From Candidatus Latescibacterota bacterium (lineage in GTDB: Bacteria; Latescibacterota; UBA2968; GCA-2709665): 64,000 bases of DNA. Shown here in pieces: positions 6,001 to 20,147 of the stretch (position 1 is its first letter; each line of letters begins with the position of its first letter). A program made the position numbers and the translations under genes. Below the pieces are notes generated by a model. The model had not been told where the DNA came from. It saw only the letters and a list, made by a program, of their open reading frames with translations, and did not search any database. The DNA is taken from positions 1,088,001-1,152,000 of the forward strand of contig OZ244744.1 in NCBI GenBank assembly GCA_965219455.1. Direction: 5' to 3'.

Positions 6001-6742
6001 TCTGCGTGGGTATCATCCCGTAGATGAACTCATCGTCCTTGTCCAGCCACCATGAGGCGTCCTTCAGAATTTTCTCCGCATGAATCCCGCCCCACGCCGT
6101 CGAAGCCCGGTTCCGCCGCGCCCGCGCGATTTCGTCCGCTCCCACCGGCCCCACCGACTGGCGTTCACCGGGCGACCGATCGATGCGGTCCAACACCTCC
6201 CGCGTGATCTCCTTCCGTGCCGCTTGAAAATTGTGCTCCCATTCCTCCCGCAGTGCATCCCTGATTTTCAGAAAATCCACCGCCGGACCTTCCGCAAACG
6301 AGCCGTATACCTCAAATTGCGCGACATGCATCCGTCCCGGCGTTGATTCCGGGCCTCCGTCCGCGTTCTGCCATATCCGTACCGCCTCGACCTGCACGGG
6401 ATCGAAAACCAGCAGAGTCTTGAACTCGGGTTCCGGGATGTCCCGCGCCACGATGGCAACCCACGCACCGTCAACCCGGCCCTGAACTTCGACCCTGCGG
6501 GAGGACTCGGGCAAACGTCCCTTCCCCCAGTAAATCTCCACCCGGTCAACCCGGGCGAGGCTCGGAAACACAACCGCCGCCCACTGCGGCAGTCGTTCCG
6601 ACGCCGAGGCCCAGGCCGTATCGCTCGTGGAGGGGTCTTCAGTCGGCCTGACACCATCGTTGATCCTGGATGCGTGGTGGTTGTACGAAATGCTGCTCAC
6701 GTACGGCCGGCTGCCATTCCTGTACAATGCCAGATTTAACAT
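3098..6742 (-). CDS. Heparinase II/III-like polysaccharide lyase with N-terminal F5/8 type C (discoidin)-like domain
   Basis: HGHRDKLSI, DLGYP, HTASHATVCIDG, YERTL/VVDLFRVRGG. N-terminal NLAL...INDG...W...VRIW...QFEVYG pattern. Confidence 0.75.
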   Translation of the reverse strand: MLNLALYRNGSRPYVSSISYNHHASRINDGVRPTEDPSTSDTAWASASERLPQWAAVVFPSLARVDRVEIYWGKGRLPESSRRVEVQGRVDGAWVAIVARDIPEPEFKTLLVFDPVQVEAVRIWQNADGGPESTPGRMHVAQFEVYGSFAEGPAVDFLKIRDALREEWEHNFQAARKEITREVLDRIDRSPGERQSVGPVGADEIARARRNRASTAWGGIHAEKILKDASWWLDKDDEFIYGMIPTQNPRAISPSYERGCPIHGGGRKCMRTNTALDYRWQCVIGREWWYNGAVVHNPATGEPVEVWDDDDGWTAPEGFANPGTIYHFNSAWRYYALSKLFFHPYELTIASPDAYTGDTAVVQLSRAYAITGDERYAHRAGVMLNRLAEVYRFYNGTVDEQRPLTRGYLVQVSWEEMPIYNCMTACDLVMDSMLQDEALLAFFRSKGDCDYNGDGRLDSEDIRYNIRHNLFGYMYEWLHRAMAIQTGDYIIREGLVLWALGDLLANEELVEEAIEGRCGLAVNLTNNTFRDGKWWYDAPGYTVSSITRTILDRLFSMKDADRIRDSRLRIRESIEFARNIYCDGRIPAIGDTGGGDSRMKVLDPLANCDVEELAYIHTGDAGYRKRLLALSEGNVDRVRARYADANLLFHADPVRGETEKYVPRTALFHDSGVAILRTGDDIASRKHLVLNYGKGSGGHGHRDKLSINLITFGYDLACDLGYPTTFTHKKVDGWEKHTASHATVCIDGQAQELATGSLRFYGRTPGMQAVCASGKRAYPGCAEVYERTLVMVDAPGSDAYVVDLFRVRGGATHDYMFRSLSGDDGEDFRMEFPAGTETVRQARGTAAGEDVAFGTSPGLGFIKDVGRTFCDGLWSATWRVGDEENTGIRLTMLGDRNREIIHGKGEGYGFFGQSPWDACVAVKHSSDEDETLFAGVLEPYQGRPFVRSVEALTVSGGIGVKVCLDGRTDYVFRRLDKGSVCTAEIDGIPVAFDAEVARITVYESGGCDLHVLQGVRLRFGDEVLEGAALPAGRVDAVDPEDRSVVVALDSGDEIVNGDVIVFRNPAYICNSSCEVISVESMDGNRHRVRLNMSLNLSEGVVRYVDRERGLFATDTCMTKLEACPGGLFDGKAIHSEGKAIGSIETAGPDILGPEERTFTSAIGVDDPATGTINCFRFQDPRYGSALKVGDRFLVCDLNAGDRFEVMRSAHRAVR

Positions 6743-7217
6743 ATCTTACCTCCTGAAGATAGGTCAGGGGTCCTGCGAAAAATTCGGCCTGATTGAATGA
6801 AATCGATCGGCAAGCGTCGAATCCGCCTCCACGACTCGGGGCGGGATCCAACAGGGAGTTTATGCGCGCCACTCGATCCTATCTATTTACCCCGATCTTC
6901 TTACCCCGAAAAAGCGAGATATCGAAACGGTCCGACCTTAAATCGCAAGAAAGTGGAATCCAGGGCAAGTTTTGTACCATTGGACAAGCCTTCAGACTTG
7001 ACATTACAGATATTTTTACGTGATTCTATCCCTGATGAATATATCGGGCTTCGTTTCTCCCAAATGCAAGGGATTTTATTTTGTGGCCTGCTCATCGCCC
7101 ACTCACGTTTCGTCCTTCAAGCTCGCCACGCCCGCGCTACAATGCGCGTTATCGAATCCATTGAAGGTCTCGCTGTCTGCGTCCTCGATCCGGTCGCTTC
7201 CGTCCTGCCCGCGTCCA

Positions 7218-9440
7218 ATGCCAGGAATGCACTCTGGCGCGGCAGTTGTCCGAAGCGTGTTACTATTGTGTTTCGTTCTCGCAATGTTCAGCACGCCACC
7301 TTCGTCTGCAAACCAGAGGCCCCGAGTCGCGGTCGTGCTGAGTGGGGGAGGCGCGCGAGGTGGGGTACATATTGGCGTATTGCGCGTGCTCGAGCGCGAA
7401 GGCATACCCATCGATTTGATCGTGGGCGCGAGTTATGGCGCTTTGGTGGGAGGATTGTATGCTGCCGGATATTCTGTTGATGATCTCGAACGCATTGTTG
7501 TAGAAACAGATTGGTGGGAAATGACCAGCAACAGCCCTGACCGCCGTCTGTTGAATTTGCATCGCAAACCAATAGTCGATCGTCAGATGCTTGCATTGCG
7601 CCTCGATAAATTGGATCTGAAATTGCCTTTCGGGATGTTTGCCGGAAAAAAAATCCAGCATTTTCTCTATCAATTGACAATAGGCGCAACCTACCGGGCG
7701 CGAAACGATTTCGATCGCCTTCCAACGCCTTTTCGCGCAATTGCAACAGATATTGTAGCTGGCGAACAGGTCGTTCTAAAAGACGGCTCGCTCGGCGCGG
7801 CAATCAGAGCGAGTATTTCTATCCCCGGGGTATTTGTGCCTGTGAGTACAGGACAAACCCTTCTTGTGGATGGCGGCATTGTCAACAATCTGCCTGTAGA
7901 CGTCGCATTGGACGCCGGCGCTGATCTGGTTATTGCCGTGGATTGTGCCACCCCTTTGCGCACTCAAATGCACGAATTCGAAAATTTTATCGACGTCATC
8001 GATCAGGCTGTCAGTTTTCGAATCGAAGAAAAGAAAATGGTAAATCGAAAACTTGCCCATGTGTTGATGGTGCCCGATTTAAAAGGATTTGATAGCGGCG
8101 ATTTTAATCGCTCACATACAGTGATCCCGATTGGTGAAGAAGAAGCCGAAAAACATCTGGATGCGATCCGGAAAGCGCTGCAAGAGCTCGGCATTTCAAA
8201 ACGCGCTGGAAAGTCAAGAACGTCGATATTGCCGGATGATTTCGACTTTAGAACCTGGGCCGATATACCATCGGATATTGTCATCGACCGGGTGCGGATT
8301 GAGGGTTTGGAGCGCTACACAAGGGGCATTTCCATTGCAAGGTTGGAAAAGTTCATTAATAAGCCGACATCGTTTCGAGAACTGGAAGGTGAATCCGGCC
8401 GGTTATATGCGACGGGATTATTTCAAACGGTCGATTACCAGGTTATCTATCATGAAGACTATACCGAAGTGGTTTTTCAGGTGCTTGAAAACCCCCCAAG
8501 TGAATTGAAAATGGGACTTCGTTACGACAACGATTTTGGGGTTTCGGCACTGGCCGAGCTTGCACACCAAAATGTCTATGGCCGTGTAGTAGAGTTTTAT
8601 TTGCGCGGTTTATTGGGCTCTACCATGAAGTTTGGTGAATTGGATTTGGTTTTTCGCTCATTCAAGGGGCTGAGTCTTCTCGGGGAGATTCACGGCTGGA
8701 AACAAGAACGGGTGGCATATTATGAAGGAGAACCCCAGCAAACGTATTACGAGAGGCGTCTTCGCGGGCGATTGGGCATGCAGATTCTGTCCCATAGCTG
8801 GGGAGGTATCAACCTGGGGTATCAACTTGAGCATATGCTCATTCGCGATGAGCGCCAGGAATATGAGTCCGACTATCTACCCGCCCTTTGGCTATCTGCA
8901 GGTATCGACACGCGAGACGATGTGTTTGTGCCAAGACAAGGCTTCTATTTTAAAACGCAGGCAAAATGGGTCCATCGGACATTTTCACACAAGCAGGTGC
9001 AGACACGGCTCGCGTACTTCGCCAGCCCCCATCCGCAGCTGAGTGTGGGCTTCTGGTCTCACGGAGGCTACGTGACACAGCCCGCACCGATTGATGAAAA
9101 CTTCCTGCTGGGTGGTGCAGGACACTTGAGCAGCGCAGCATTGCGCGTTGTCGGTCTCCGGCGAGACGAACTTTCAGCTTTCAGGTTCGTATCGGCGCGC
9201 ATTTCTATTTGGAGCCACCTGAGATTCTGGGAATCCATACAGCGCAGCGCTATTGGCGTTTTCTATCAGGGCGGGCGGTACTATTTTCCTGCCTATACGG
9301 ATCAGCCATATACCAACATTCATGGTTTTGGTATCGGGGGTTATATCAACACGAAGATTTTTGGCCCCATTCGCATTGATATTGTGAGCACGAAAAAAAG
9401 GGATGTCCAGGTTTATACCGCAATCGGATTTGCGTTTTAA
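7218..9440 (+). CDS. Patatin-like phospholipase-POTRA-beta-barrel (PlpD-like, type Vd), copy 1
   Basis: Signal peptide, GGGARG, GASYG, DGG, POTRA-like segment (LYATGLFQTV), barrel ending IGFAF. Start uncertain; ORF open from 7020. Confidence 0.88.
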   Translation: MPGMHSGAAVVRSVLLLCFVLAMFSTPPSSANQRPRVAVVLSGGGARGGVHIGVLRVLEREGIPIDLIVGASYGALVGGLYAAGYSVDDLERIVVETDWWEMTSNSPDRRLLNLHRKPIVDRQMLALRLDKLDLKLPFGMFAGKKIQHFLYQLTIGATYRARNDFDRLPTPFRAIATDIVAGEQVVLKDGSLGAAIRASISIPGVFVPVSTGQTLLVDGGIVNNLPVDVALDAGADLVIAVDCATPLRTQMHEFENFIDVIDQAVSFRIEEKKMVNRKLAHVLMVPDLKGFDSGDFNRSHTVIPIGEEEAEKHLDAIRKALQELGISKRAGKSRTSILPDDFDFRTWADIPSDIVIDRVRIEGLERYTRGISIARLEKFINKPTSFRELEGESGRLYATGLFQTVDYQVIYHEDYTEVVFQVLENPPSELKMGLRYDNDFGVSALAELAHQNVYGRVVEFYLRGLLGSTMKFGELDLVFRSFKGLSLLGEIHGWKQERVAYYEGEPQQTYYERRLRGRLGMQILSHSWGGINLGYQLEHMLIRDERQEYESDYLPALWLSAGIDTRDDVFVPRQGFYFKTQAKWVHRTFSHKQVQTRLAYFASPHPQLSVGFWSHGGYVTQPAPIDENFLLGGAGHLSSAALRVVGLRRDELSAFRFVSARISIWSHLRFWESIQRSAIGVFYQGGRYYFPAYTDQPYTNIHGFGIGGYINTKIFGPIRIDIVSTKKRDVQVYTAIGFAF

Positions 9441-9556
9441 CGTATTGGAGATTCCGGGCTTATCGGTCCTCAGACCCCGACGCGCTGAATCATTCAGGTT
9501 GTTTTTCCGATGGGTTACCCAGAAGGCGGTGGAATCCATCTAATGCAGGGAACCAG

Positions 9557-11806
9557 ATGACGGACGAAAAATTCCACCCGAAAAAACGCGTGAGGGTTCA
9601 GCGCCCATTCGTCCGGAGCGTGTTACTATTGTGTTTCGGTCTTGCCGTGTTCAGCACGCTACCTTCGTCTGCGAATCAGAGGCCCCGTGTCGCGGTCGTG
9701 CTGAGTGGGGGCGGCGCACGCGGAGGGGCGCATATCGGCGTGCTGCGCGTACTCGAGCGCGAAGGCGTACCTATAGACATGATTGTGGGGGTGAGTTACG
9801 GCGCCCTGGTCGGGGGATTGTACGCCGCGGGATTTTCCGTTGACGATCTCGAACGCGTCATTCTGGAGACAGACTGGTGGGAGATTACCAGCAACAGCCC
9901 CGACCGCCGTCTGTCCAACATGAATCGCAAACCAATGGCCGACCGTCAGATGTTCGCGTTGCACCTTGAGGAATTGAAACTGAAATTGCCTTATGGCATT
10001 TTTGCCGGACAAAAGATCCATCAGTTCCTCAATCAACTGACCATTGGCGCAACCTTTAGGGCGCGCAACGACTTCGATCAACTACCAACGCCTTTTCGGT
10101 CAATCGCAACCGACATTCTGTCCGGAGAACAGGTCGTGATCGATAGCGGCTCGCTCGGCGCCGCGATCAGGGCCAGTATTTCCGTTCCAGGGGTATTCGC
10201 GCCGCTGAGTACGGAAAATACCCATCTCGTGGATGGCGGCATCGTCAATAACCTGCCGGTGGACGTCGCATTGGACGCAGGCGCCGATTTTGTCATTGCC
10301 GTAGACTGCGCCACGCCCCTGCGTACATTAAAAGAGGAAATTCAGGATATTATCGACGTCATCGACCAGGCCGTCAGTTTTCGGATAGAAGAAAGAAAGA
10401 TCGCAAACCGGAAACGCTCCCACGTGTTGATATTGCCCGAACTGCACAACTTCGATGGAAGCGATTTCAATCGGTCGTATACCCTGATTCCGATTGGTGA
10501 AAAGGCAACTGAAAAGGAATTGGACACGATCTGGACGGCATTGCAGACGCTTGGAGTACCAAGAAGCGTCGGAAAATCAAGAACGTCCAGATTGCCGGAA
10601 GCGTTCGATATCAATACGTGGGTGGATATACCACCGGACGTGGTAATCGACCGGGTTCGGATAGAGGGTGTACAGCGTTATTCCGAGGCCCTGTTCAAGG
10701 TACGGCTGGAAAAGTTCGTCAACAGGCCGATATCCTTCAAGGAACTCGAACGCGAGTGCGGCCGTCTGCATGCGACCGGATTGTTTCAGACGGTCGATTT
10801 CCACGTCTACTATCATGAAGGCGAGACCGAATTGGTCTTTCACGTGCTCGAAAACCCCCCAAGCGAGTTGAAAGTGGGGATTCATTACAACAACGATTAC
10901 CGGGTCTCGGTGCTGGGCGAGATTGCGCACCAAAGTACACTTGGCCGCATATCGGAACTCCATATTCGCGGACTGCTAGGCAATTTGAATTTTGCTGAAC
11001 TGGTCATGATTTTCCGGACCTCCGGGCGTCTCGGTCTGCTGGGGGAGGTCCAGGCCTGGAACCAGGATCGTTTGTATTTTCGAAATCGGCAGCGTGAGGG
11101 TGGGTACGAAGAACGGCGTTTTCGCTCGCGACTTGGATTGCAGGCACTGTTCCACAGCTGGGGTAGTTTCCAGGCAGGGTACCAGGTGGAGCACGCCCGT
11201 ATCCGCTATGCGGCCCGTTCAATAGGCGATGCATCCGAATTCCTGCCCGGCTTATGGTTATCCGCAGGGATTGACACACGAGACGACTCGATGGTGCCAA
11301 CGCAGGGCGTCTATTTTCAGACACGCGCAAAATGGATTCACCGGACGTTTTCACATAAGCAGATTCAAACCCAACTCGAGTTCTTCGCCAGTCCCCGTTC
11401 GCAATGGAGTGTGGGCTTCTCGTCCATCGGAGGCTACGTGACACAGCCAGCTCCTGTATTCGAATTCTTCCCATTGGGCGGCGCGGGACATTTCAGCAGC
11501 GCGGCATTGCCGGTCGTCGGACTCAAGCGGGATGAACTGCGGGTTGCCAGGTTCGCATCGGTAGGCATATCGCTATGGAGACAGGTTAAATTCTGGGAGT
11601 CGGTGCCGCGCAGTGGTATCGGGATTTTCTATCAGGGCGGACTATATGATATGAGTTCAAATCCGAAGCAGGATTATACACCTATCCACGGCTTCGGAGT
11701 TGGGGGCTATATCAACACGACGCTATTGGGACCCATTCGCGTTGAAATTGTGAGCACCCAGAAGAAGGATATCAAGATTAACGCCTCAATCGGTTTCGGA
11801 TTCTAA
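9557..11806 (+). CDS. Patatin-like phospholipase-POTRA-beta-barrel (PlpD-like), copy 2
   Basis: GGGARG, GVSYG, DGG, terminal IGFGF. Collinear paralog of the preceding gene. Confidence 0.88.
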   Translation: MTDEKFHPKKRVRVQRPFVRSVLLLCFGLAVFSTLPSSANQRPRVAVVLSGGGARGGAHIGVLRVLEREGVPIDMIVGVSYGALVGGLYAAGFSVDDLERVILETDWWEITSNSPDRRLSNMNRKPMADRQMFALHLEELKLKLPYGIFAGQKIHQFLNQLTIGATFRARNDFDQLPTPFRSIATDILSGEQVVIDSGSLGAAIRASISVPGVFAPLSTENTHLVDGGIVNNLPVDVALDAGADFVIAVDCATPLRTLKEEIQDIIDVIDQAVSFRIEERKIANRKRSHVLILPELHNFDGSDFNRSYTLIPIGEKATEKELDTIWTALQTLGVPRSVGKSRTSRLPEAFDINTWVDIPPDVVIDRVRIEGVQRYSEALFKVRLEKFVNRPISFKELERECGRLHATGLFQTVDFHVYYHEGETELVFHVLENPPSELKVGIHYNNDYRVSVLGEIAHQSTLGRISELHIRGLLGNLNFAELVMIFRTSGRLGLLGEVQAWNQDRLYFRNRQREGGYEERRFRSRLGLQALFHSWGSFQAGYQVEHARIRYAARSIGDASEFLPGLWLSAGIDTRDDSMVPTQGVYFQTRAKWIHRTFSHKQIQTQLEFFASPRSQWSVGFSSIGGYVTQPAPVFEFFPLGGAGHFSSAALPVVGLKRDELRVARFASVGISLWRQVKFWESVPRSGIGIFYQGGLYDMSSNPKQDYTPIHGFGVGGYINTTLLGPIRVEIVSTQKKDIKINASIGFGF

Positions 11807-12105
11807 CCTTGATTCGACATTTTTCGGGGACGTTAAGTCGCATATACGCAAGTGAATAAAGGCGATTTGACGTCGGATTTCCAGGATACTTAAGGTCACT
11901 GAACGTAAACGGGAAAAACATCCCTTTGGACGACCTTTACGCCCCGTTTCGGAAGGTTTCGTCGCGGTGCCGCGTTGCTGTTTCTTTCGAATTGAAGCTA
12001 ATGTCCAGGGTTATTCCTGGTTGCGGCGCGTTGAAGTGCTGCAGAATCGAATTTAACCGGACAGCGTCAGGTTGTCCGAATCAACCTGAATCACAAAGGA
12101 CAAGA

Positions 12106-14826
12106 ATGTCATTCACCAGGTGGAACCCCCTTTTTTTCATGCTCGTGCTCGCTTTTTCCGTTCCCGCAGAATCCGCCTCTCAGAAGGATTCACCGGCTCC
12201 AGGGTCCAGGATTCATCGATCCGTTCCTCCGCCTGGAGCAAAAACCCATAAGGTGATTCCAGGTGAGAGATTTCGCGCAGACGGATTCAAACGCTGGTTC
12301 TACGGCGACAATTACCGTGATCTCTGGAATACCCCCGTCGAGGTCGCGGTTCTTGACCTGGACAGCGTGGGAGGCGGACTTACGCCCCTTCGCACCGGCG
12401 GATTCGGACAATCCATTTCTCTTCACTTTACAGGCAAAAACGGCCGTCGTTATACAGTGCGTTCGCTGGACAAAGATGCCACCAGGAGGGTCCCCGACGG
12501 AATCGCGGATACGTTCGTAGGCGACGTCCTTCAGGATCTGATCTGCGCGATGCTTCCGACGGGCGCGCTCGTAGTCGATCCGCTGATGAAGGCCGCAGGC
12601 ATCCTCCATTCCAGGCATACGCTCGTCGTCATTCCGGACGACCCCAGGCTTGGGGAATTCCGTGGAGCGTTTGCCGGTCTGATTGGCATGCTGCAGGAAC
12701 ACCCTTCCGAAGGACCGGACGATACGCCCGGCTTCGCAGGTTCCCGGAAGGTCAGCGGCACGGAGAAGGTGATGAAAACCCTGGAAAAAAGCCCGTGTAA
12801 CCGCGTGGATGCCCGCGCCTTTCTGAAAGCGAGACTGATGGATTTCCTCATCAACGACAAGGACCGCCATCACGGGCAGTGGAGATGGGCGCGGTTCCCC
12901 GACGGCGATTGCCATACATGGCTCCCGATACCGGAGGATCGCGATCAGGCATTTATCCATTTCGAAGGGCTTGCCATGGCAATGGCAAGACGACAATTCC
13001 CCATACAGATCCAGTTTCAGAGGACGTATCCCAGTTTAGTCGGTCTCACGCTGACCGGGTGGGAAATAGACCGCGAATTCCTGGTCGAACTCGACAGGGC
13101 TGCGTGGGATTCGGTAGTAACGTCCTTTTGCGCGAGTCTGACCGACCGGGTTATCGACGACGCCGTGAGAGAGTTGCCGCCTCCGTATTACAAGAGGGTT
13201 GGAAAGACCCTGGCCGAAGCCCTCAAATCGAGGCGGAACGCTTTACCGGAGTTTGCCGCCAGTTACTATGAATTGATTTTACACGAGGCCGAAATATGGG
13301 CAACCGACAAAGACGAATACGTCCAGTGTGAGCACCGTCCGAACGGCGATCTCAGAGTCCGAATTGGCCTGATGGAGGGCGTTGGTGGTGAAAGGAAGAC
13401 GCCTTATTTCCAAAGGACGTTTCATCCCGAAGAAACCAGGGAAGTCAGAATACACCTCCGGGGAGGAGAAGACCGCGCCGAAATATCGGGAACGAAAGGG
13501 CGGATTGTCGTTCGCATCGATGGCGGGGGCGGAGATGACACGCTCACGAACTCATCCGTCGCCGGCGCCTCCAAGACGAGGTTTTATGATTCACGTGGAT
13601 CGAACCGGTTCGTCAAGGGCAACGGAGCGAGGATCGACGAGCGTCCTTACCAGCGGCCACATGGATCGCATACGCCGAATGCCAGGTACGCACTGGATTG
13701 GGGAAAGCGCACTGCGAATCTCCCGATTTTTATGATAAATCCGGACCTGCACGTGTACGCGGGAGTGCAGCATATCCGGCAGTATTACGGCTATCGGAAA
13801 GACCCGTTCTCTTCACAACACGATTTTACCGTCGGTCTTGCAGCACTCGACGGTCCCAAAAGCGTCAAGCCGTTTGTTTCCTATATGGGAAACTTTCGCC
13901 AGCCGGTGCGCTCCTTCGATGCCAGGGTCCACGTTGGGTACTCCGGGATCCAGCTGCTCAGATTCAACGGTTTCGGAAACAACACGGAGATTTCGCAACC
14001 GAAGTCCTATTACAAGTTGGAGCAGGGACTCCTCGTTTTCGCACCGGCGCTCGGGTTCCGGGCAAAAGACCATGAAGAAAACGTTCCGAGCGTTGGTATC
14101 GAGTCGCTTCGCTCGAAATTAAACGTTGACTTTGGGCCGATCATAAAGTATTCAAATGTACCGCTCAGTTCCAACAAGGGGAAGTACGTCGGTTCGCTCG
14201 ATCAACCCATGTACGGTACGGGTTCCTTCACTCAGGCAGGCGCACAGGCGGAAGTCATCTGCGATATGCGTGACAATCCGTTGTACTCCACTCAGGGGAT
14301 CTGGGTCAGGGTGGGCGGCGCCGTATACCCTGGGTTCGGGACTGTGGAATCGACATTCGGAAACATAGATCTGGTAGCCAGTACTTACCTGACCGGGCGT
14401 ATGCCGACGAACCCGACACTTGCTCTTCGAGCGGGAGGCAAGAAGGTATGGGGGACTTTCCCCTTCTACGAAAGCGCCTTTCTGGGCGGTCCCGGTGCGC
14501 TTGGCGCCGGCATTTCCAGAGGCAACCTGCGCGGCTTCCGGAAAAACCGGTTCGCCGGAGACGCTTCCCTGTATGGAAATTCGGAGCTTCGGCTGGTTCT
14601 CACAAAAATTGAACTGTTCGTGGAGGGAGAGCTGGGGCTGTTCGGCACCGCGGACGCCGGAAGGGTGTTTTATGACGGAGATCCTGCAAGTGCCGACAGA
14701 TGGCACACCAGTATCGGGGGTGGATTCTGGCTGTCCTTCCTCCAGCGCAGGCACACCTTGAGCGCGGCTGTCGTAAAAGGCGACGATCTGACGGGAGTAT
14801 ATCTGCGCGGCGGTTTCATGTTCTAA
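12106..14826 (+). CDS. BamA/TamA (Omp85)-family barrel protein with N-terminal atypical kinase-like domain, copy 1
   Basis: Signal peptide (MSFTRWNPLFFMLVLAFSVPA), GGFGQS, RSLDKD, DKDRHHGQW, PEDRDQAF; LRGFRKNRFAG Omp85 loop motif; terminal F. Confidence 0.75.
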   Translation: MSFTRWNPLFFMLVLAFSVPAESASQKDSPAPGSRIHRSVPPPGAKTHKVIPGERFRADGFKRWFYGDNYRDLWNTPVEVAVLDLDSVGGGLTPLRTGGFGQSISLHFTGKNGRRYTVRSLDKDATRRVPDGIADTFVGDVLQDLICAMLPTGALVVDPLMKAAGILHSRHTLVVIPDDPRLGEFRGAFAGLIGMLQEHPSEGPDDTPGFAGSRKVSGTEKVMKTLEKSPCNRVDARAFLKARLMDFLINDKDRHHGQWRWARFPDGDCHTWLPIPEDRDQAFIHFEGLAMAMARRQFPIQIQFQRTYPSLVGLTLTGWEIDREFLVELDRAAWDSVVTSFCASLTDRVIDDAVRELPPPYYKRVGKTLAEALKSRRNALPEFAASYYELILHEAEIWATDKDEYVQCEHRPNGDLRVRIGLMEGVGGERKTPYFQRTFHPEETREVRIHLRGGEDRAEISGTKGRIVVRIDGGGGDDTLTNSSVAGASKTRFYDSRGSNRFVKGNGARIDERPYQRPHGSHTPNARYALDWGKRTANLPIFMINPDLHVYAGVQHIRQYYGYRKDPFSSQHDFTVGLAALDGPKSVKPFVSYMGNFRQPVRSFDARVHVGYSGIQLLRFNGFGNNTEISQPKSYYKLEQGLLVFAPALGFRAKDHEENVPSVGIESLRSKLNVDFGPIIKYSNVPLSSNKGKYVGSLDQPMYGTGSFTQAGAQAEVICDMRDNPLYSTQGIWVRVGGAVYPGFGTVESTFGNIDLVASTYLTGRMPTNPTLALRAGGKKVWGTFPFYESAFLGGPGALGAGISRGNLRGFRKNRFAGDASLYGNSELRLVLTKIELFVEGELGLFGTADAGRVFYDGDPASADRWHTSIGGGFWLSFLQRRHTLSAAVVKGDDLTGVYLRGGFMF

Positions 14827-15161
14827 GAGCCTGCCGGAGATCCGCAGTTCTGCCCTTATGCCGTTGTAACTTTACCAGTCTATATTCACTGAGAATAGTG
14901 GGTATTGTCTTCATGCGGTTCCTCCCGGTCCGTCAAGGAACTACCGGACAGGATCCGATTTCTTGTTCACAACGACTCAACCTTAATTCGTCTTATTTCG
15001 GCGAAGTCACGCTATACCTTATATATTGACGTGGCAGTGAAAGACCTCCCCGGATCTCAGTTAACGGGGGTCAACCGGACTTGCGGTCTGACTTATCGCA
15101 GAAATGCATTCATCTGTCCAGTTTCCCGTTGTCAAAGCCACCAAGTAGCCGAAGGGCAATA

Positions 15162-17864
15162 ATGGGTTTATCCAAATGGGGTTTCCTTGCATTCCTGGGG
15201 TTTGCTCTATCTGTTCCGGCAGAATCCACGCCTCAGAAGGATTCACCGGCTCCAGGGCACAGAATTCACCGGTCGATTCCGCCGCCTGGCGCGAAGACCC
15301 ATTTGGTGATTCCTGGTGAGAGATTCCGCGCCGGTTGGTTCCAACGCTGGTTTTACGGCAGCGATTACCGGGATCTCTGGACTACCCCTATCGAGATTGT
15401 GGTCCTCGACCTGGACAGTATTGGAGGTGGCTTGACGCCGCTTCGCACCGGCGGCGCAGGACAATCTATATCTCTGCATTTTAGAGGGCAAGACGGACGC
15501 CGATATACGGTTCGGTCGTTGGATAAAGACCCTACCAAGAGGATATGGGACGAACTCAGGGATACGATCGTGGAGGACGTCCTGCAGGACTTGATCAGTG
15601 CGCTTCTACCCACCGGAGCGCTTGTTGTGGACCCGCTGATGGAAGCCACGGGTATTCTGCACGCGAAGCATACGCTCGTCGTAATCCCCAACGACACCAG
15701 ACTCATGGAGTTCCAAGGGGAGTTTGCTGGCTTAGTAGGACTGCTGCAGGAACACCCTTCCGAAGGGCCCGACGATACGCCCGGTTTTGCCCATTCCCGG
15801 AAGATCAGTGGAACGAAAAAGCTGCGGAAACACCTTGAAAAAGGCCCGTGCAACCGCGTCGATGCACGTGCCTATCTGAAAGCGAGGCTGTTGGATCTTC
15901 TCATCAACGACAAGGACCGTCACTACGATCAGTGGAGGTGGGCGCGGTTTCCCGATGGCGGCTGCTATACCTGGCTTCCAATACCCGAGGACCGGGACCA
16001 GGCATTTATCGACTTGGACGGATTTGCTATGGCATTGGTGCGTAGAGCACACCCCAGGCAAATCGAGTTCGACGACAAATATCCAAGTCTGGTAGGCCTA
16101 TCGACTACCGGCTGGGAAATGGATCGCGAGTTCCTGGTCGAACTCAATTGGACTGCATGGGATTCGGTAATAGCGGAGTTTCGCGGGGACTTGCCGGATT
16201 CGGTCATGGAGAATGCGGTTCGGAAGCTCCCGCAACCGTATTACGAGATCGTTGGAGAATCTCTTGCACAGGCGCTTAAAGCGAGGCGGGACGCATTGCC
16301 TGGATTCGCCCTGAGATACTATAAGTTGATCACCCGAGAAGCCGAAATCCAGGCGACTGATCGGGACGAATACGTCCTGTGTGAGCATCTTCCGAGCGGT
16401 GACCTCGCGGTACGCATTGGCCTAACGGAGGGCGACGAGAGAGAACGGCAGACGGCCTATTTCCGGCGGACCTTCCGCGCCCAGGAAACCAGTGAGGTCC
16501 GAATATACCTGCGTGGAGGAGACGATCAATCGGAGATAGTGGGGAGCGGGGGACGGATTGCCGTTCGCATCGATGGCGGCGGCGGGAACGACTCGTTTAC
16601 AAACGAATCCCGGGCTGGTACTTCAAAGACCCGGTTTTATGATTATCGTGGAAAAAATCGGTTCAGTAAAGGCAGTGGTGCGAAAATCGACGAGCGACCC
16701 TACACACGTCCTCCCGCACGACGCCTTACCGCGCGGTATGCACTCGACTGGGGCATGCAATCAATTACGTTCCCCATTGTCATGGCGGGACCGGACCTGG
16801 GCGTTTTCGTGCGAATGCTCCATAGCCGGCAGTATTTCGGCTATCGAAAAACTCCTTTCTCTTCGCAACTTTTTTTTAACGTGGGGCTGGCGAGAAACAA
16901 CAATCTTCTGCCCTTTGTTTCCTTTACCGGGAACTTCCGCCAACTGTTTCACGACGTCGACATGAAGGTCGACTTCAAGTACTCCGGAATCCAGACGATC
17001 CGGTTCAATGGATTCGGCAACGGAACAGAACTTCGGAATCCATCCTCCTTCTACAATTTACGGCAGAAGCATGTCGTATTTGCACCGGCCATCGAGTTTC
17101 GAACGGATCTGCACAAAGATAACAGGCACGGTGGGATAGCACCGGTTCGCTCGAAACTGAACGTTGGCCTGGGGCCGATCGTCAAGTATTCAAACACACC
17201 TCTGGATACCAATAGGGAGACCTACATAGGTTCGCTCAATCTCCCGCAATACGGTACGGGTTCCTTCGGCCAGGCAGGCGTCCAGGGTGAAATCAGGTTC
17301 GACACGCGTGATAATCCGGGGTTCGCCACCCGGGGATTCCTGGTCAGTGTTTCTGGCGCCGTCTACCCGGGAGTCTGGAACGTGGAATCGGCCTTTGGTA
17401 GAACAAACGGAGCAGCACACATTTACATGACGGCTCGAATGCCGACTGACCCGACCCTTGCCCTAAGAGCCGGTGGCAAGAAGGTGTGGGGACATTTTCC
17501 CTTCCACGAAAGCGCCTTCCTTGGCGGTCCCGGCTTTGCCGGCGGTGGCGCGCACAGTGGCAATTTACGCGGTTTCCGGAAAAACCGGTTCGCCGGAGAT
17601 ACGTCGTTGTATGGAAACTCCGAGCTACGGTTGGTTCTGGCCAAAATCAGGATCCTGGTACCAGGAGAGTTCGGCCTGTTCGGGATGGTGGATACAGGCC
17701 GGGTTTTCTATGACGGAGACCCGCACAATGGGAACACATGGCATACCAGCCTGGGTGGCGGAATATGGTTGTCATTCCTCAGGCGACGGCAGACCTTGAG
17801 CGTCGCAATCGTGAATGGAGACGATTTGACGGGAGTATATCTGCGCTCTGGTTTTTTGTTCTAA
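15162..17864 (+). CDS. BamA/TamA (Omp85)-family barrel protein with N-terminal atypical kinase-like domain, copy 2
   Basis: Paralog of 12106..14826 with DKDRHYDQW, PEDRDQAF, LRGFRKNRFAG and terminal F. Confidence 0.75.
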   Translation: MGLSKWGFLAFLGFALSVPAESTPQKDSPAPGHRIHRSIPPPGAKTHLVIPGERFRAGWFQRWFYGSDYRDLWTTPIEIVVLDLDSIGGGLTPLRTGGAGQSISLHFRGQDGRRYTVRSLDKDPTKRIWDELRDTIVEDVLQDLISALLPTGALVVDPLMEATGILHAKHTLVVIPNDTRLMEFQGEFAGLVGLLQEHPSEGPDDTPGFAHSRKISGTKKLRKHLEKGPCNRVDARAYLKARLLDLLINDKDRHYDQWRWARFPDGGCYTWLPIPEDRDQAFIDLDGFAMALVRRAHPRQIEFDDKYPSLVGLSTTGWEMDREFLVELNWTAWDSVIAEFRGDLPDSVMENAVRKLPQPYYEIVGESLAQALKARRDALPGFALRYYKLITREAEIQATDRDEYVLCEHLPSGDLAVRIGLTEGDERERQTAYFRRTFRAQETSEVRIYLRGGDDQSEIVGSGGRIAVRIDGGGGNDSFTNESRAGTSKTRFYDYRGKNRFSKGSGAKIDERPYTRPPARRLTARYALDWGMQSITFPIVMAGPDLGVFVRMLHSRQYFGYRKTPFSSQLFFNVGLARNNNLLPFVSFTGNFRQLFHDVDMKVDFKYSGIQTIRFNGFGNGTELRNPSSFYNLRQKHVVFAPAIEFRTDLHKDNRHGGIAPVRSKLNVGLGPIVKYSNTPLDTNRETYIGSLNLPQYGTGSFGQAGVQGEIRFDTRDNPGFATRGFLVSVSGAVYPGVWNVESAFGRTNGAAHIYMTARMPTDPTLALRAGGKKVWGHFPFHESAFLGGPGFAGGGAHSGNLRGFRKNRFAGDTSLYGNSELRLVLAKIRILVPGEFGLFGMVDTGRVFYDGDPHNGNTWHTSLGGGIWLSFLRRRQTLSVAIVNGDDLTGVYLRSGFLF

Positions 17865-18158
17865 TGTCTCTCTCGGAAAAGTCGTTGACCAGTTTTTGAA
17901 ATGTCCTATGTTCTCTCATGCGCGCCTGGCGCACCCTTCAACAATTAAGGGCATCATGGGGAGAGCGACCTCGGAAGCCGAGCAATCGCGTAAATCTGTT
18001 TCCGGGCTATAACACCCGTAGCCCGTCAAAATGCCTTTACGTTCGTCTTCGTGAACACAGATGTCGCATTATTGACAGATTAAAACGCCACAGATTTTAC
18101 GAGAGCCGGACAGAATTCGGATTCTCCGTCAGGCTACTAGCCAGTCAAGGAGGATGCT

Positions 18159-19097
18159 GTGTCTAACAACATCATCGTACGTCTGCTCATCTATTATATC
18201 ACCTGGCTTGTGATTCTCAATGTGATCTTTCATGTTTTTCCCGAAATTCTCCATTACGTCGCCAAGGAGCGTGAACGCATATTCGTGGGAAAATCGCTCG
18301 GCTCGGGCGTCGACGCTGCGGTTCCACTGGGAAACATCAAGGAAGGGATAAACCGCCTTCTCGATCCGGCACATACGATTCCGGTTGTGGTCGCGCTGGT
18401 ACTGGCCTTCGGGGTTACCCTCCCGATTACCTGGGTATATGCCTGGACGCATTCGCCCAAGAAATACAGCCAATCCTTTTTACACACGCTGCTCGTGATG
18501 CCAGTCGCCATCGCGCTGGTTGTCTTTCTGGTTAAAGGCAGTCTTGCCCTTGCGTTCAGCCTGGCTGGCATCGTGGCCGCCGTCAGCTTTCGGATCTCGC
18601 TCAGAGCGACTATGGATGCCGTGTACATGTTTATGGTTATAGGGATCGGGCTGGCCGCCGGTACTCAGCTTACGACAGTGGCCTACATCGCATCGTTGGC
18701 TTTTGTCACCATAACGCTGGGCGTCTGGAAGACCAATTATGGAGCACAACCTCCTGTACTTTCCGGCTGGAGAATTGTCTCGCCGAGGAAATCGGTCGAA
18801 ACCTCCGAATCAGAGGATAATGCAGCCGGGAATTCCGTTGATTTCCGGATCGCCGTGCATGCAACGAACGTCAATGCAGCGCAAAAAGCAGCAGGCCCGA
18901 CCCTTGACTCCGATAGCATAAAGTGGAAGGTCGCAGATATGATCGAGAATGAAGATGGAACGGTCGTCGTTATGTATGATGTCTCTTCGAATCAATCCGT
19001 CGCTCTGCCCTCTCTGGTCCGGGATATTGAGAAGAGAGGAAAAAAGCGTATTAAAGGCGTCAAACTGACCGAAGGTGAGACAGATCAGAGTTTATAA
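18159..19097 (+). CDS. DUF4956-family inner-membrane protein
   Basis: Multiple TM helices; VKGSLALAFSLAGIVAAVSFR, MDAVYMF..IGIGLAAG. AGGAGG RBS before a GTG start. Confidence 0.75.
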   Translation: MSNNIIVRLLIYYITWLVILNVIFHVFPEILHYVAKERERIFVGKSLGSGVDAAVPLGNIKEGINRLLDPAHTIPVVVALVLAFGVTLPITWVYAWTHSPKKYSQSFLHTLLVMPVAIALVVFLVKGSLALAFSLAGIVAAVSFRISLRATMDAVYMFMVIGIGLAAGTQLTTVAYIASLAFVTITLGVWKTNYGAQPPVLSGWRIVSPRKSVETSESEDNAAGNSVDFRIAVHATNVNAAQKAAGPTLDSDSIKWKVADMIENEDGTVVVMYDVSSNQSVALPSLVRDIEKRGKKRIKGVKLTEGETDQSL

Positions 19098-19178
19098 CCT
19101 GTAATCTAAAAGCCTCCAGTCAACAGGGAAAATCATGCAGGCAGGAACTGACGGGAATTGATAACGGTATAATTGTAA

Positions 19179-20147
19179 ATGAAGAACTTTAGAGAAAAAT
19201 ACACGCAGGACTACCCTGGTCTCGGCTTTCTTCTCTACATGCTGACGATGGGATCAGGAACGGCCGCAACCGCGGAATTCACTGGAGATGCCTTAAACGC
19301 AAATCCGGAAACTTCAGGTGTCCTCCCTTCCGCGGACACAATGACGGCATCCAAAAGGAAGATATCCCTCGAAAGCTATACCCTGGATCCGGAGACCGCG
19401 ACGCACTGGAAGCTTCCCAGGGATCTCGAGGAGATCTCCGGTCTGGCAATGACCGGAGACGAACGACTCCTGGCGCACAACGATGAGAGAGCGATCATTT
19501 TCGAGATCGATTATCTGCAAGGGTCAATCGTAAAGGCATTCCAACTGGCGGATATGAATCACCCGGTTGCCGGTGATTTCGAGGGCATTGCCGCGACTGA
19601 CGACGGGATCTTCCTGGTCACAAGTACGGGGCGGCTGTACGAGTTTCATGAGGGAATTGCCGGGGAGTCCGTTCTGTTTAACGTCTACACGACCGGGGTT
19701 GGCAGAGATTTCGAAATAGAGGGCCTGACGTATGACCGGGGCCTTCGCGTACTCCTGCTGATGTGCAAGGATGCTCGCAGCCTGGAAACGGAAGGGCAGC
19801 TGGCGATATACCAGTGGTCAGTTGACGAAAAACAGATGAAAGAAAATGGACGCATCCTGATACGAGTGAAAGAATTCGCCCGACACGTCAGTGGACGGAA
19901 ATTCCATCCTTCGGGAATCGAGCGGCATCCGGTTTCCGGGAATTATTTCGTCGTAGCTGGCCGTCAGGGGGCGATCGCCGAAATTACGCCGGCTGGACAG
20001 GTCGTTGCCGTCAGGAAGTTTCCCGCCAGGTGGCATCGTCAGGTTGAAGGTATTACCTTCGCTGCGGACGGCACGCTGATCGTTGCCGATGAAGGCGCGG
20101 GGAGGAAAGGCAGGCTGACCCTCTATCCGGTTTCGGACGGTTGGTAA
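19179..20147 (+). CDS. SdiA-regulated (YjiK)-like exported beta-propeller
   Basis: Repeated EISGL, HNDE, DFEGI, EIEGL, PSGI, QVEGI, ADEG blade motifs; N-terminal hydrophobic stretch. Confidence 0.75.
   Translation: MKNFREKYTQDYPGLGFLLYMLTMGSGTAATAEFTGDALNANPETSGVLPSADTMTASKRKISLESYTLDPETATHWKLPRDLEEISGLAMTGDERLLAHNDERAIIFEIDYLQGSIVKAFQLADMNHPVAGDFEGIAATDDGIFLVTSTGRLYEFHEGIAGESVLFNVYTTGVGRDFEIEGLTYDRGLRVLLLMCKDARSLETEGQLAIYQWSVDEKQMKENGRILIRVKEFARHVSGRKFHPSGIERHPVSGNYFVVAGRQGAIAEITPAGQVVAVRKFPARWHRQVEGITFAADGTLIVADEGAGRKGRLTLYPVSDGW

Follow-up and report, generated by a model that had tools for sequence, protein, structure and literature searches.

Omp85-type outer-membrane proteins with a predicted kinase-fold domain in a Latescibacterota genome and their association with DUF4956 proteins

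Two paralogous genes and the domains of their products

Within a window of 64,000 nucleotides from the genome of a Candidatus Latescibacterota bacterium (assembly GCA_965219455.1, contig OZ244744.1, positions 1,088,001 to 1,152,000 of the forward strand; coordinates below are those of this stretch, and G and L numbers are our labels for genomes and loci), two adjacent paralogous genes encode exported proteins that appear to combine an N-terminal domain of protein kinase-like fold with a C-terminal barrel of the Omp85 superfamily; we refer to them and their relatives as kinase-Omp85. The corresponding open reading frames (ORFs) lie on the plus strand at 11926-14826 and 15081-17864. Because most close homologs are 895-906 aa long, we favour the ATG codons at 12106 and 15162 as starts, which gives a protein of 906 aa for paralog 1 (12106..14826, plus strand) and one of 900 aa for paralog 2 (15162..17864, plus strand). 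Paralog 1 consists of a signal peptide, the kinase-fold domain, a beta linker and the barrel, and paralog 2 has the same architecture with every catalytic motif intact. The two proteins are identical at 608 of 906 positions (67 %), with 6 gaps.

A preliminary description of the locus, made from the sequence alone, had listed a series of motifs, all of which were found in both copies. These include a hydrophobic N-terminal signal sequence ending in VPAES, a Gly-rich loop (GGFGQS in paralog 1, GGAGQS in paralog 2), RSLDK, the DRH motif (DKDRHHGQW and DKDRHYDQW), DRDQAF, a GGxD-type linker (RIDGGGGDD and RIDGGGGND), the barrel motif LRGFRKNRF and a Phe as the last residue. The predicted Sec signal peptide of paralog 1 (12106..12174, plus strand; residues ~1-23, MSFTRWNPLFFMLVLAFSVPAES) was judged by eye from the sequence; in the structural model residues 7-17 form a helix with low predicted local distance difference test (pLDDT) values. 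A codon-level comparison of the paralogs over the whole gene yielded 0.22 nonsynonymous (Ka) and 1.18 synonymous (Ks) substitutions per site; therefore, the duplication is old, and purifying selection acts on both copies. With Ka values of 0.17 in the N-terminal domain (hereinafter N-domain) and 0.27 in the barrel, the N-domain is the most constrained part of the paralogs.

The kinase-fold domain of paralog 1 occupies residues 47-392 (12244..13281, plus strand) and was modelled with AlphaFold2 on residues 30-440 with a 43-sequence alignment (pLDDT 94.0; predicted template modelling score, pTM, 0.93). A Foldseek search of the PDB with this model resulted in 25 matches at E<=0.001, headed by CtkA (5.1e-6) and HipA (1.2e-4), followed by Fam20C, PI4KIIa, CotH and HipT. 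When Foldseek's match list was rescored with VIA-align, PI4KIIb obtained a Z score of 14.9 (248 aligned residues; root mean square deviation, rmsd, 4.2), PI4KIIa 14.7, CotH 14.4 and CtkA 14.0, with the PI3K-related kinases, HipA and Fam20 at Z ~11. A VIA search that was independent of Foldseek and covered 48,161 representative chains placed CotH at the top (Z 14.4, 247 aligned residues, rmsd 4.1), with PI4KIIa at 14.1 and 14.0 and CtkA at 12.9; 38 chains reached Z>=8, and rows 1-44 among the best 50 were all kinases. The N-domain is predicted, on the strength of this model, to have the bilobal protein kinase-like fold of the PI3/4K, HipA, Fam20 and CotH kind. The preliminary description had claimed such a fold and proposed AlphaFold and Foldseek as the check; the high-scoring model and the kinase matches of both structure searches bear the claim out. 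Either of two outcomes was to count against it, a fold unlike that of kinases or Lys and Asp residues that vary among homologs. Both were looked for; what was found is a set of kinase matches at Z 14.4-14.9 over ~250 residues and Lys and Asp residues that do not vary in two independent sets of sequences.

These sets are 43 cluster representatives with 36-73 % identity and 48 N-domains from genome loci of several phyla with 32-77 % identity to the query (N-domain residue numbers refer to the modelled residues 30-440, and adding 29 gives the whole-protein number). Invariant in both sets are G62, R90, K94, D115, D217, D222, D224, R225, D249 and D251. Among these, R90 and K94 are the R and K of RSLDK, D222, D224 and R225 make up the DxDR part of the DRH loop, and the DRD motif contributes D249 and D251; in whole-protein numbering of paralog 1, the GGFGQS loop is followed by R119/K123, D144, D251-x-D253-R-H..Q258 and D278-R-D280. 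G61 is invariant among the 48 sequences and present in 42 of the 43 representatives, at least 90 % of the 48 N-domains retain H226, R250, G69 and G70, and among the representatives G69 is found in 40, G70 in 42 and Q73 in 39. The invariant arginines of the domain are R42, R90, R214, R225, R250, R294 and R347. Given that these residues are invariant across N-domains of several phyla, the conservation of the putative catalytic motif set is beyond chance. In the AlphaFold2 model, a strand-loop-strand unit with GGxxQ(S/T) is followed by a third strand ending at R90, by K94 four residues later, by a helix with D115, by a helix ending in D-x-D-R-H-x-x-Q, and by a beta hairpin and then D-R-D. The motifs of the N-domain are thus predicted to stand in canonical kinase order, catalytic roles having been assigned from the predicted secondary-structure positions and from the motifs of PI3K/PI4K and HipA kinases. 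The N-domain presumably has in common with the PI3K/PI4K kinases a DRH-like catalytic loop with a polar residue after it, and an Asp motif further downstream.

The DRH-to-DRD spacing of the N-domains is 25-27 residues, and the catalytic D228 and D251 of CotH are reported to lie 23 residues apart (PMC7821199). CotH kinases (PF08757; Bacillus cereus CotH, PDB 5JD9/5JDA), the best match in the search independent of Foldseek, accordingly resemble kinase-Omp85 in two catalytic Asp residues ~23-27 apart and also have a DUF4956 partner in common with it, but kinase-Omp85 shows no sequence match to them, is fused to an Omp85 barrel, has a DRH-type catalytic loop and a long-form DUF4956 partner, and occurs here in a genome without VTC. 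The type II PI4-kinases (PDB 4PLA, 4HND, 9HHM), representing the PI3K-PI4K group, are a top or tied structural match (Z 14.1-14.9) with 8-10 % identity and no PF00454 match, and the N-domain differs from them in being bacterial, exported and barrel-anchored. CtkA of Helicobacter pylori and the HipA/HipT toxin kinases have the best Foldseek E-values and VIA Z of 11-14; they are soluble, cytoplasmic or secreted, and kinase-Omp85 has no HipA_C Pfam match. Kinship in sequence to any known kinase was looked for and not found: PDB searches with a single sequence and with two profiles gave barrel or chance matches only. In the Atlas comparison the N-domain had a similarity of 0.76 each to CotH, HipA_C and HipA_2, which are weak leads only. 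The N-domain constitutes a separate sequence family, and its modelled shape places it within the kinase-like superfamily, nearest to CotH and the type II PI4-kinases.

The full-length AlphaFold2 model of paralog 1 (pLDDT 84.9, pTM 0.82) shows, in this order, the signal helix, the kinase-fold domain (47-392), a strand-only segment (394-511) and 16 barrel strands (534-902). The segment after the kinase-fold domain (13285..13638, plus strand) is a GGxD / GGGGDD-rich all-beta linker in which DSSP assigned strands only. No beta-alpha-alpha-beta-beta unit of a POTRA domain is present in the modelled residues 394-511, and neither paralog has a POTRA match in Pfam. The barrel itself (13705..14826, plus strand; residues 534-906) has its closest VIA matches in BamA of Deinococcus radiodurans (Z 24.5, 323 aligned residues, rmsd 3.8), TamA (24.2) and Sam50 (24.1). 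At the sequence level, the NCBIfam model Omp85_fam matches paralog 1 at E 2.8e-20 and paralog 2 at 3.6e-21, under its curated cut-off, and the Pfam Omp85 matches at the C-termini are sub-threshold (19 and 23.1 bits, with the cut-off at 24; E 6e-5 for paralog 2). Omp85 proteins typically carry the loop-6 motif (V/I/L)RG(F/Y) and a C-terminal aromatic residue. NLRGFRKNRF and the terminal Phe are present in both paralogs, and R809, R815 and G818 are invariant in 37 full-length homologs. By their modelled barrel, the loop-6 RGF motif and the terminal Phe, the paralogs are predicted members of the Omp85 superfamily, in agreement with the barrel assignment of the preliminary description.

The same description had called the proteins type Vd-like. 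This holds for the order of an enzyme domain followed by a barrel, and it does not hold for the POTRA domain, replaced here by the strand-only segment, or for the patatin passenger, for which Pfam found no match in either paralog as against E ~1e-32 in the two genes upstream. PlpD and FplA, of type Vd, thus share with kinase-Omp85 the succession of signal peptide, enzyme domain and 16-strand Omp85 barrel but differ from it in the enzyme, which is a patatin and not a predicted kinase-fold domain, and in having POTRA. Omp85 subfamilies without POTRA have been published (PMC4104836).

The enzyme domain of PlpD, the type Vd prototype, is reported to stay in the periplasm, and FplA was reportedly not detected at the cell surface (PMC11116518). 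The N-domain of kinase-Omp85 is probably periplasmic in the same way. The first strand of an Omp85 barrel begins at the periplasmic side. Because of this polarity and the analogy to PlpD, the kinase-fold domain most likely faces the periplasm, tethered beneath the outer membrane by the small all-beta linker.

Linkage to DUF4956 and a YjiK-like propeller

Downstream of paralog 2 lie a gene for a long-form DUF4956 multi-pass membrane protein (18159..19097, plus strand; 312 aa; PF16316, E 3e-9) and one for an exported YjiK-like (SdiA-regulated / phytase-like) beta-propeller (19179..20147, plus strand; PF13449 and PF06977). The propeller matches Escherichia coli YjiK (3qqz) at E 3.3e-11 and has eight invariant acidic residues (E85, D102, E103, D133, E135, E181, E290 and E305), which suggests metal binding. 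Single-genome searches found exactly one DUF4956 gene, no CotH and no VTC in this genome. The extra C-terminal domain of the DUF4956 protein, of ~100 residues (18780-19097), has no Pfam match and contains invariant L249 and W256; its only named Atlas lead, MgtC_SapB_C at 0.80, was too weak to use.

Upstream of the paralogs are two tandem genes for PlpD-like patatin-Omp85 proteins, gene 1 at 7020..9440 (plus strand; Patatin E 4.9e-33) and gene 2 at 9557..11806 (plus strand; Patatin E 1.1e-32), both with Omp85 and Omp85_2 matches, the second also matching the BamA model over residues 355-643; their linkage to kinase-Omp85 is moderate. The locus thus contains four genes for Omp85-anchored enzymes in a row, and the relative L051 of the same genus has two PlpD-like copies and a single kinase-Omp85 gene. 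The block from 8000 to 20000, which holds the PlpD-like, kinase-Omp85, DUF4956 and propeller genes, is low in G+C throughout (51-56 % at ~8-20 kb, compared with 60-65 % in the flanks on either side). Despite this contrast, the gene order, including the flanking heparinase-like and GFO/cupin genes, is kept in genomes of the same genus (L043, L051, L052). The gene at 3098-6742 (minus strand), which adjoins the locus in the same-genus genomes, encodes a protein of 1,214 aa that combines an F5/8 type C (discoidin) domain with a heparinase II/III C-terminal domain. A role of the locus in anti-phage defence was rejected: PADLOC returned nothing for the paralogs, DUF4956 and the propeller, and only weak generic phospholipase matches for the PlpD-like proteins.

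Within the lineage we compared 20 loci of ~19.7 kb from other genomes of the phylum, searched with the proteins of the window. Of these, 19 contain a DUF4956 homolog; in 17 loci it follows on the same strand no more than 500 nt downstream, and in 14 the distance is at most 110 nt. The propeller occurs in 14 of the 20 loci, and a PlpD-like gene upstream in 8, in one of them as fragments only. The association extends to whole genomes. In a sample of 168 genomes of the phylum, 58 were counted as positive for kinase-Omp85 (best E <= 1e-100, with the partial match in G090 left out; a looser criterion gives 129 of 168, a number that is too high owing to matches confined to the barrel, which was part of the query alignment). 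DUF4956 is encoded in 56 of these 58 genomes (including G078, whose match is below the family cut-off) and in 29 of the 110 genomes without kinase-Omp85, counts that overstate independence as the compared genomes are interrelated. Within one genus, DUF4956 is found in 15 of 15 genomes with kinase-Omp85 and in none of the 6 without it, and in the organism's own genus the only genome without kinase-Omp85 (G050) is also without DUF4956. The split within a genus implies repeated joint loss or gain of the two genes.

The linkage was also assessed in 80 distant loci taken from the at least 595 stretches that encode relatives, many of them short contigs. Hidden Markov model (HMM) searches found the propeller in 28 of the 80 (adjacent in 24) and DUF4956, distant forms of which the HMM may miss, in 18; when only the 43 loci flanked by 3 kb or more on either side are counted, the respective numbers are 19 and 12. 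The propeller is linked to kinase-Omp85 in Gemmatimonadota, Ignavibacteria and Bacteroidota although the gene order differs. Pfam analysis of 87 nearest-neighbour ORFs in 22 loci of Ignavibacteria, Bacteroidota and others revealed a propeller directly upstream on the same strand in 12 loci, an HD + PycTM membrane protein in 10, a class III nucleotide cyclase in 5, PPK1, PAP2 and a histidine phosphatase in 3 each, and CotH in 1. With tblastn, PPK1 was detected inside 21 of the 80 distant loci.

The HD + PycTM protein is a fusion of an HD phosphohydrolase with a Pycsar effector-type PycTM region and adjoins kinase-Omp85 in loci of Ignavibacteria and Bacteroidota (L079, L085, L089, L115, L120, L123, L125, L128, L129 and L131). 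Together with the class III cyclases, it hints at cyclic-nucleotide control of the module. Homology of DUF4956 to this membrane protein was considered and discarded (hhalign probability 0.2 %).

The pairing of DUF4956 with kinase-fold proteins is not confined to kinase-Omp85. In Gram-positive Pel loci, a contiguous accessory group of a CotH kinase, a polyphosphate polymerase, DUF4956 and DUF4832 has been described (10.1101/768473). This CotH-VTC-DUF4956 group shares with the locus analysed here the combination of DUF4956 and an extracytoplasmic protein of (predicted) kinase fold, with the differences that VTC is missing here, that distant relatives are linked to PPK1 instead and that the kinase-fold protein is anchored in the outer membrane. 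In our control genomes, DUF4956 and VTC matched in the same three, and CotH in those three and in Bacillus subtilis. CotH is present in 72 of the 168 genomes of the phylum, in none of 21 in the organism's family and in 2 of 31 in the neighbouring family. Other DUF4956 genes of the phylum adjoin CotH genes, for example in G143, G128, G133, G134, G106 and G018; these are mostly short open frames of 219-268 aa, and the ones that adjoin kinase-Omp85 (G088 and G164, for example) belong to the long form, with 306-356 aa. In every case compared among the listed coordinates, DUF4956 is paired with one of the two kinase-fold proteins. In two Larkinella genomes (L123, gene 13062-14561; L124), a canonical CotH gene lies ~1.5 kb from a metallophosphoesterase-kinase-Omp85 gene, so that the two types can share one locus.

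The TLC ATP/ADP transporter (PF03219) has no match in the genome (the control genomes are also blank, so this absence is weak) or in any of 14 genomes of the genus; in the phylum, it is present in 32 of 168 genomes, and where both genes are listed (G164, G102, G041) its position is unlinked to that of kinase-Omp85.

The stretch or parts of it occur in public sequencing runs (21 rows from 8 studies). Two RNA libraries labelled as sponge metagenome contain contigs of 158-233 nt, with 1-7 mismatches, that fall on PlpD-like gene 1, both paralogs, DUF4956 and the propeller; these are a weak hint of expression, such libraries being able to hold DNA. Contigs from DNA runs join homologous places of the paralogs (13650-14500 and 16720-17570, skipping ~3,065-3,170 bases); their sides measure 23-37 letters only, further letters separate them, and the joints are uninterpretable; they may stem from related strains with a single copy or from assembly across the repeat. 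Promoter-like sites (15, with 9.1 +/- 2.9 expected) and terminator-like sites (22, with 16.4 +/- 3.8 expected) were uninformative.

Extent of the family and its fusions with a metallophosphoesterase

The kinase-Omp85 family is common in Gemmatimonadota, Ignavibacteria and Bacteroidota. Of 8,000 candidates scored in a word-based protein search, 2,041 reached E<=0.001; an exhaustive search of representatives at 50 % identity yielded 2,767 at this threshold and, at E<=1e-30, 1,299, the proteins being mostly of 820-940 aa; and the count of at least 595 encoding stretches comes from a scan of one genome per species. Record titles among the matches listed include Gemmatimonadales, Longimicrobiales, Ignavibacteria, Melioribacteraceae, Calditrichaceae, a metagenome-assembled genome (MAG) of Myxococcales, MAGs labelled Chlorobiaceae and many Bacteroidota, including Pedobacter alpinus, Larkinella, Hufsiella and Flectobacillus.

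The preliminary description mentioned that relatives in Bacteroidota carry an N-terminal metallophosphoesterase that is lacking here, and this proved correct. Of 11 long Bacteroidota copies (1,198-1,301 aa), 9 have an N-terminal Metallophos domain, as has the representative P0237; the domain is found in none of 5 shorter copies and, by Pfam (PF00149), in neither of the two paralogs. The long copies consist of Metallophos, the kinase-fold domain and the barrel and probably correspond to the 'Metallo' class of Omp85 proteins described earlier (PF00149 + Omp85; Heinz and Lithgow 2014, PMC4104836); the two genes of the window differ from this class in having no metallophosphoesterase. In that study PF00149 is named a metalloprotease, and the word 'kinase' occurs 0 times (PMC4104836).

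A possible phosphotransfer module of the envelope

On balance, and with moderate confidence, we favour the reading that the paralogs are outer-membrane kinase-fold enzymes which form, with DUF4956 and the propeller, a periplasm-facing phosphotransfer module of the envelope. Each paralog would be exported at its N-terminal part via the Sec signal peptide and anchored in the outer membrane by a 16-strand Omp85-type barrel; the kinase-fold domain, judging from the model and its motifs, is probably an active enzyme; and kinase-Omp85, the long-form DUF4956 inner-membrane protein and the exported YjiK-like propeller would act jointly, a phosphoryl (or similar) group being passed to an anionic substrate of the envelope. 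The domain architecture, the modelled fold, the conservation of the motifs and the genomic linkage and co-occurrence rest directly on the data; the periplasmic orientation, the catalysis and the joint action with DUF4956 and the propeller are the parts of this scheme that we infer. The invariant arginines of the domain and the acidic propeller would suit a phosphate-rich ligand. Because DUF4956 pairs with either of the two kinase-fold proteins, kinase-Omp85 may take the place of CotH functionally in these diderms, and the module as a whole would be the diderm counterpart of the CotH-DUF4956 modules of other bacteria.

Several observations weigh against this proposal, besides the relatedness of the compared genomes noted above. 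At the sequence level, Pfam returned nothing at E<=10 for residues 30-440, including CotH (PF08757), PI3K/PI4K (PF00454) and HipA_C (PF07804); a PDB sequence search with the whole protein likewise gave nothing at E<=10; a PDB profile search with the 48 N-domains matched no solved kinase; and hhalign of the family alignment to one CotH sequence, a single sequence and not a profile, gave a probability of 2 %. Two of the putative catalytic residues vary: H226 of the DRH motif is retained in 37 and substituted in 6 of the 43 representatives, and Q229 is retained in 38 and is Asn in the other 5. The gene linkage has exceptions, namely locus L047, where the kinase-Omp85 gene has no DUF4956, propeller or PlpD-like neighbour, and genomes G041 and G142, which encode kinase-Omp85 without DUF4956. 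By tblastn, PPK1 is found in none of the 20 close-lineage loci and not in the window, and the sole PPK1 gene of the genome lies ~365 kb from the locus. The periplasm is generally held to lack ATP, and kinases of this fold are not known to use polyphosphate.

It is because of the presumed lack of ATP in the periplasm that the phosphoryl donor becomes the key question. A donor other than ATP, be it polyphosphate or another compound, is speculative; polyphosphate is our leading guess because relatives have PPK1, VTC and phosphatases as neighbours and because of the CotH-VTC-DUF4956 precedent, and since PPK1 is distant from the locus here and missing from the close loci, the link to polyphosphate is indirect in this organism. 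A more specific possibility, which we put forward as rather doubtful, is trans-envelope phosphoryl transfer by kinase-Omp85, the long-form DUF4956 protein and the YjiK-like propeller as one system: DUF4956 would move a cytoplasmic high-energy phosphate carrier, with polyphosphate made by PPK1 as the lead candidate, over the inner membrane, and the barrel-anchored kinase-fold enzyme would use this carrier, and not ATP, to phosphorylate a substrate in the outer membrane or periplasm.

The difficulty with ATP would disappear if the kinase-like domain were a passenger that, in the manner of the type V secretion originally suggested for PlpD, is threaded through, or released from, the barrel and acts at the surface or on a host or neighbour cell, with ATP or host ATP available there. 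The enzyme-then-barrel order of PlpD, the two PlpD-like genes directly upstream and the lower G+C content of the region could be taken in this sense, as could CtkA, which is among the closest structural matches and is titled in the PDB as a proinflammatory kinase of H. pylori; the short, near-identical pieces of the locus in two sponge-metagenome metatranscriptome runs make a host-associated life possible. We nevertheless consider this improbable. Translocation or release of the passenger is disputed even for PlpD, whose passenger is reported to stay periplasmic, FplA is reported to be undetected at the surface (PMC11116518), and Omp85 barrels are described as shut toward the outside (PMC4104836). 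Moreover, one of the conserved partners is an inner-membrane protein and the other carries a signal sequence of its own, which fits a system within the envelope, and members of the family are common in Gemmatimonadota, Ignavibacteria and Bacteroidota of soil and sediment, not in pathogens.

The kinase fold might also have another job: nucleotidyl transfer or another ATP-independent reaction, phosphoester hydrolysis, or service as a sensor or scaffold for an anionic ligand. Kinase-fold proteins with other chemistries, such as SelO and SidJ, exist, and the periplasm offers no obvious ATP source; for SrfA, a role of the kinase fold outside catalysis is reported in a preprint (10.64898/2026.09.18.752743); the many invariant arginines would suit a polyanionic ligand, and phosphoesterases are fused to, or adjacent to, kinase-Omp85 in relatives. 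Pseudoenzymes, however, usually lose the set of catalytic residues. Here, the full set expected for a phosphotransferase (the Gly-rich loop, a basic residue following strand 3, an acidic one on the next helix, D-x-D-R-H..Q and D-R-D) is invariant or nearly so across phyla, and CotH, with which DUF4956 is paired elsewhere, is a proven kinase. To a different function of this kind in kinase-Omp85 we assign a low probability. Finally, it is quite unlikely that the barrel does the main job, in the assembly or transport of outer-membrane proteins or lipids in the manner of BamA and TamA, with the kinase-like domain as a regulatory or docking module in place of POTRA: the barrel is of typical Omp85 type with the loop-6 RGF motif, assembly has been proposed as the default role of uncharacterised Omp85 subfamilies (Heinz and Lithgow 2014, PMC4104836) and the PlpD kind of neighbour is reported to affect membrane lipid levels (PMC11116518), but the N-domain is more constrained than the barrel, its catalytic motifs are invariant, and the genes linked to kinase-Omp85 encode DUF4956, the propeller and phosphate enzymes, not Bam or Tam components.

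Our literature searches brought up no paper in which Omp85 is combined with a kinase-like domain or the kinase-Omp85 family is described, and nothing on periplasmic or secreted kinases with polyphosphate. The available text of a preprint on new kinase-like families of the oral microbiome is without the term BamA and does not describe an outer-membrane barrel with a kinase-like domain (10.64898/2026.09.18.752743). What is new here is an Omp85 protein with a previously unannotated enzyme domain, and its co-occurrence with DUF4956.

The envelope phosphotransfer reading, which we prefer, bears on a family that is large and yet unannotated in the domain libraries searched. The 'Metallo' subfamily of Omp85 proteins would be re-read as a two-enzyme protein that combines a phosphoesterase with a kinase-fold domain. 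If trans-envelope phosphoryl transfer were true, kinase-Omp85 would provide the first known case of a kinase-fold enzyme at work in the ATP-free periplasm, and the mechanism would explain the CotH-DUF4956 modules generally. Should the domain be active and periplasmic, the finding would raise the testable question of the phosphoryl source in a compartment without ATP, would provide a function for DUF4956 and the YjiK-like propellers, and would add a class of enzymes to the Omp85 superfamily beside the patatin lipases.

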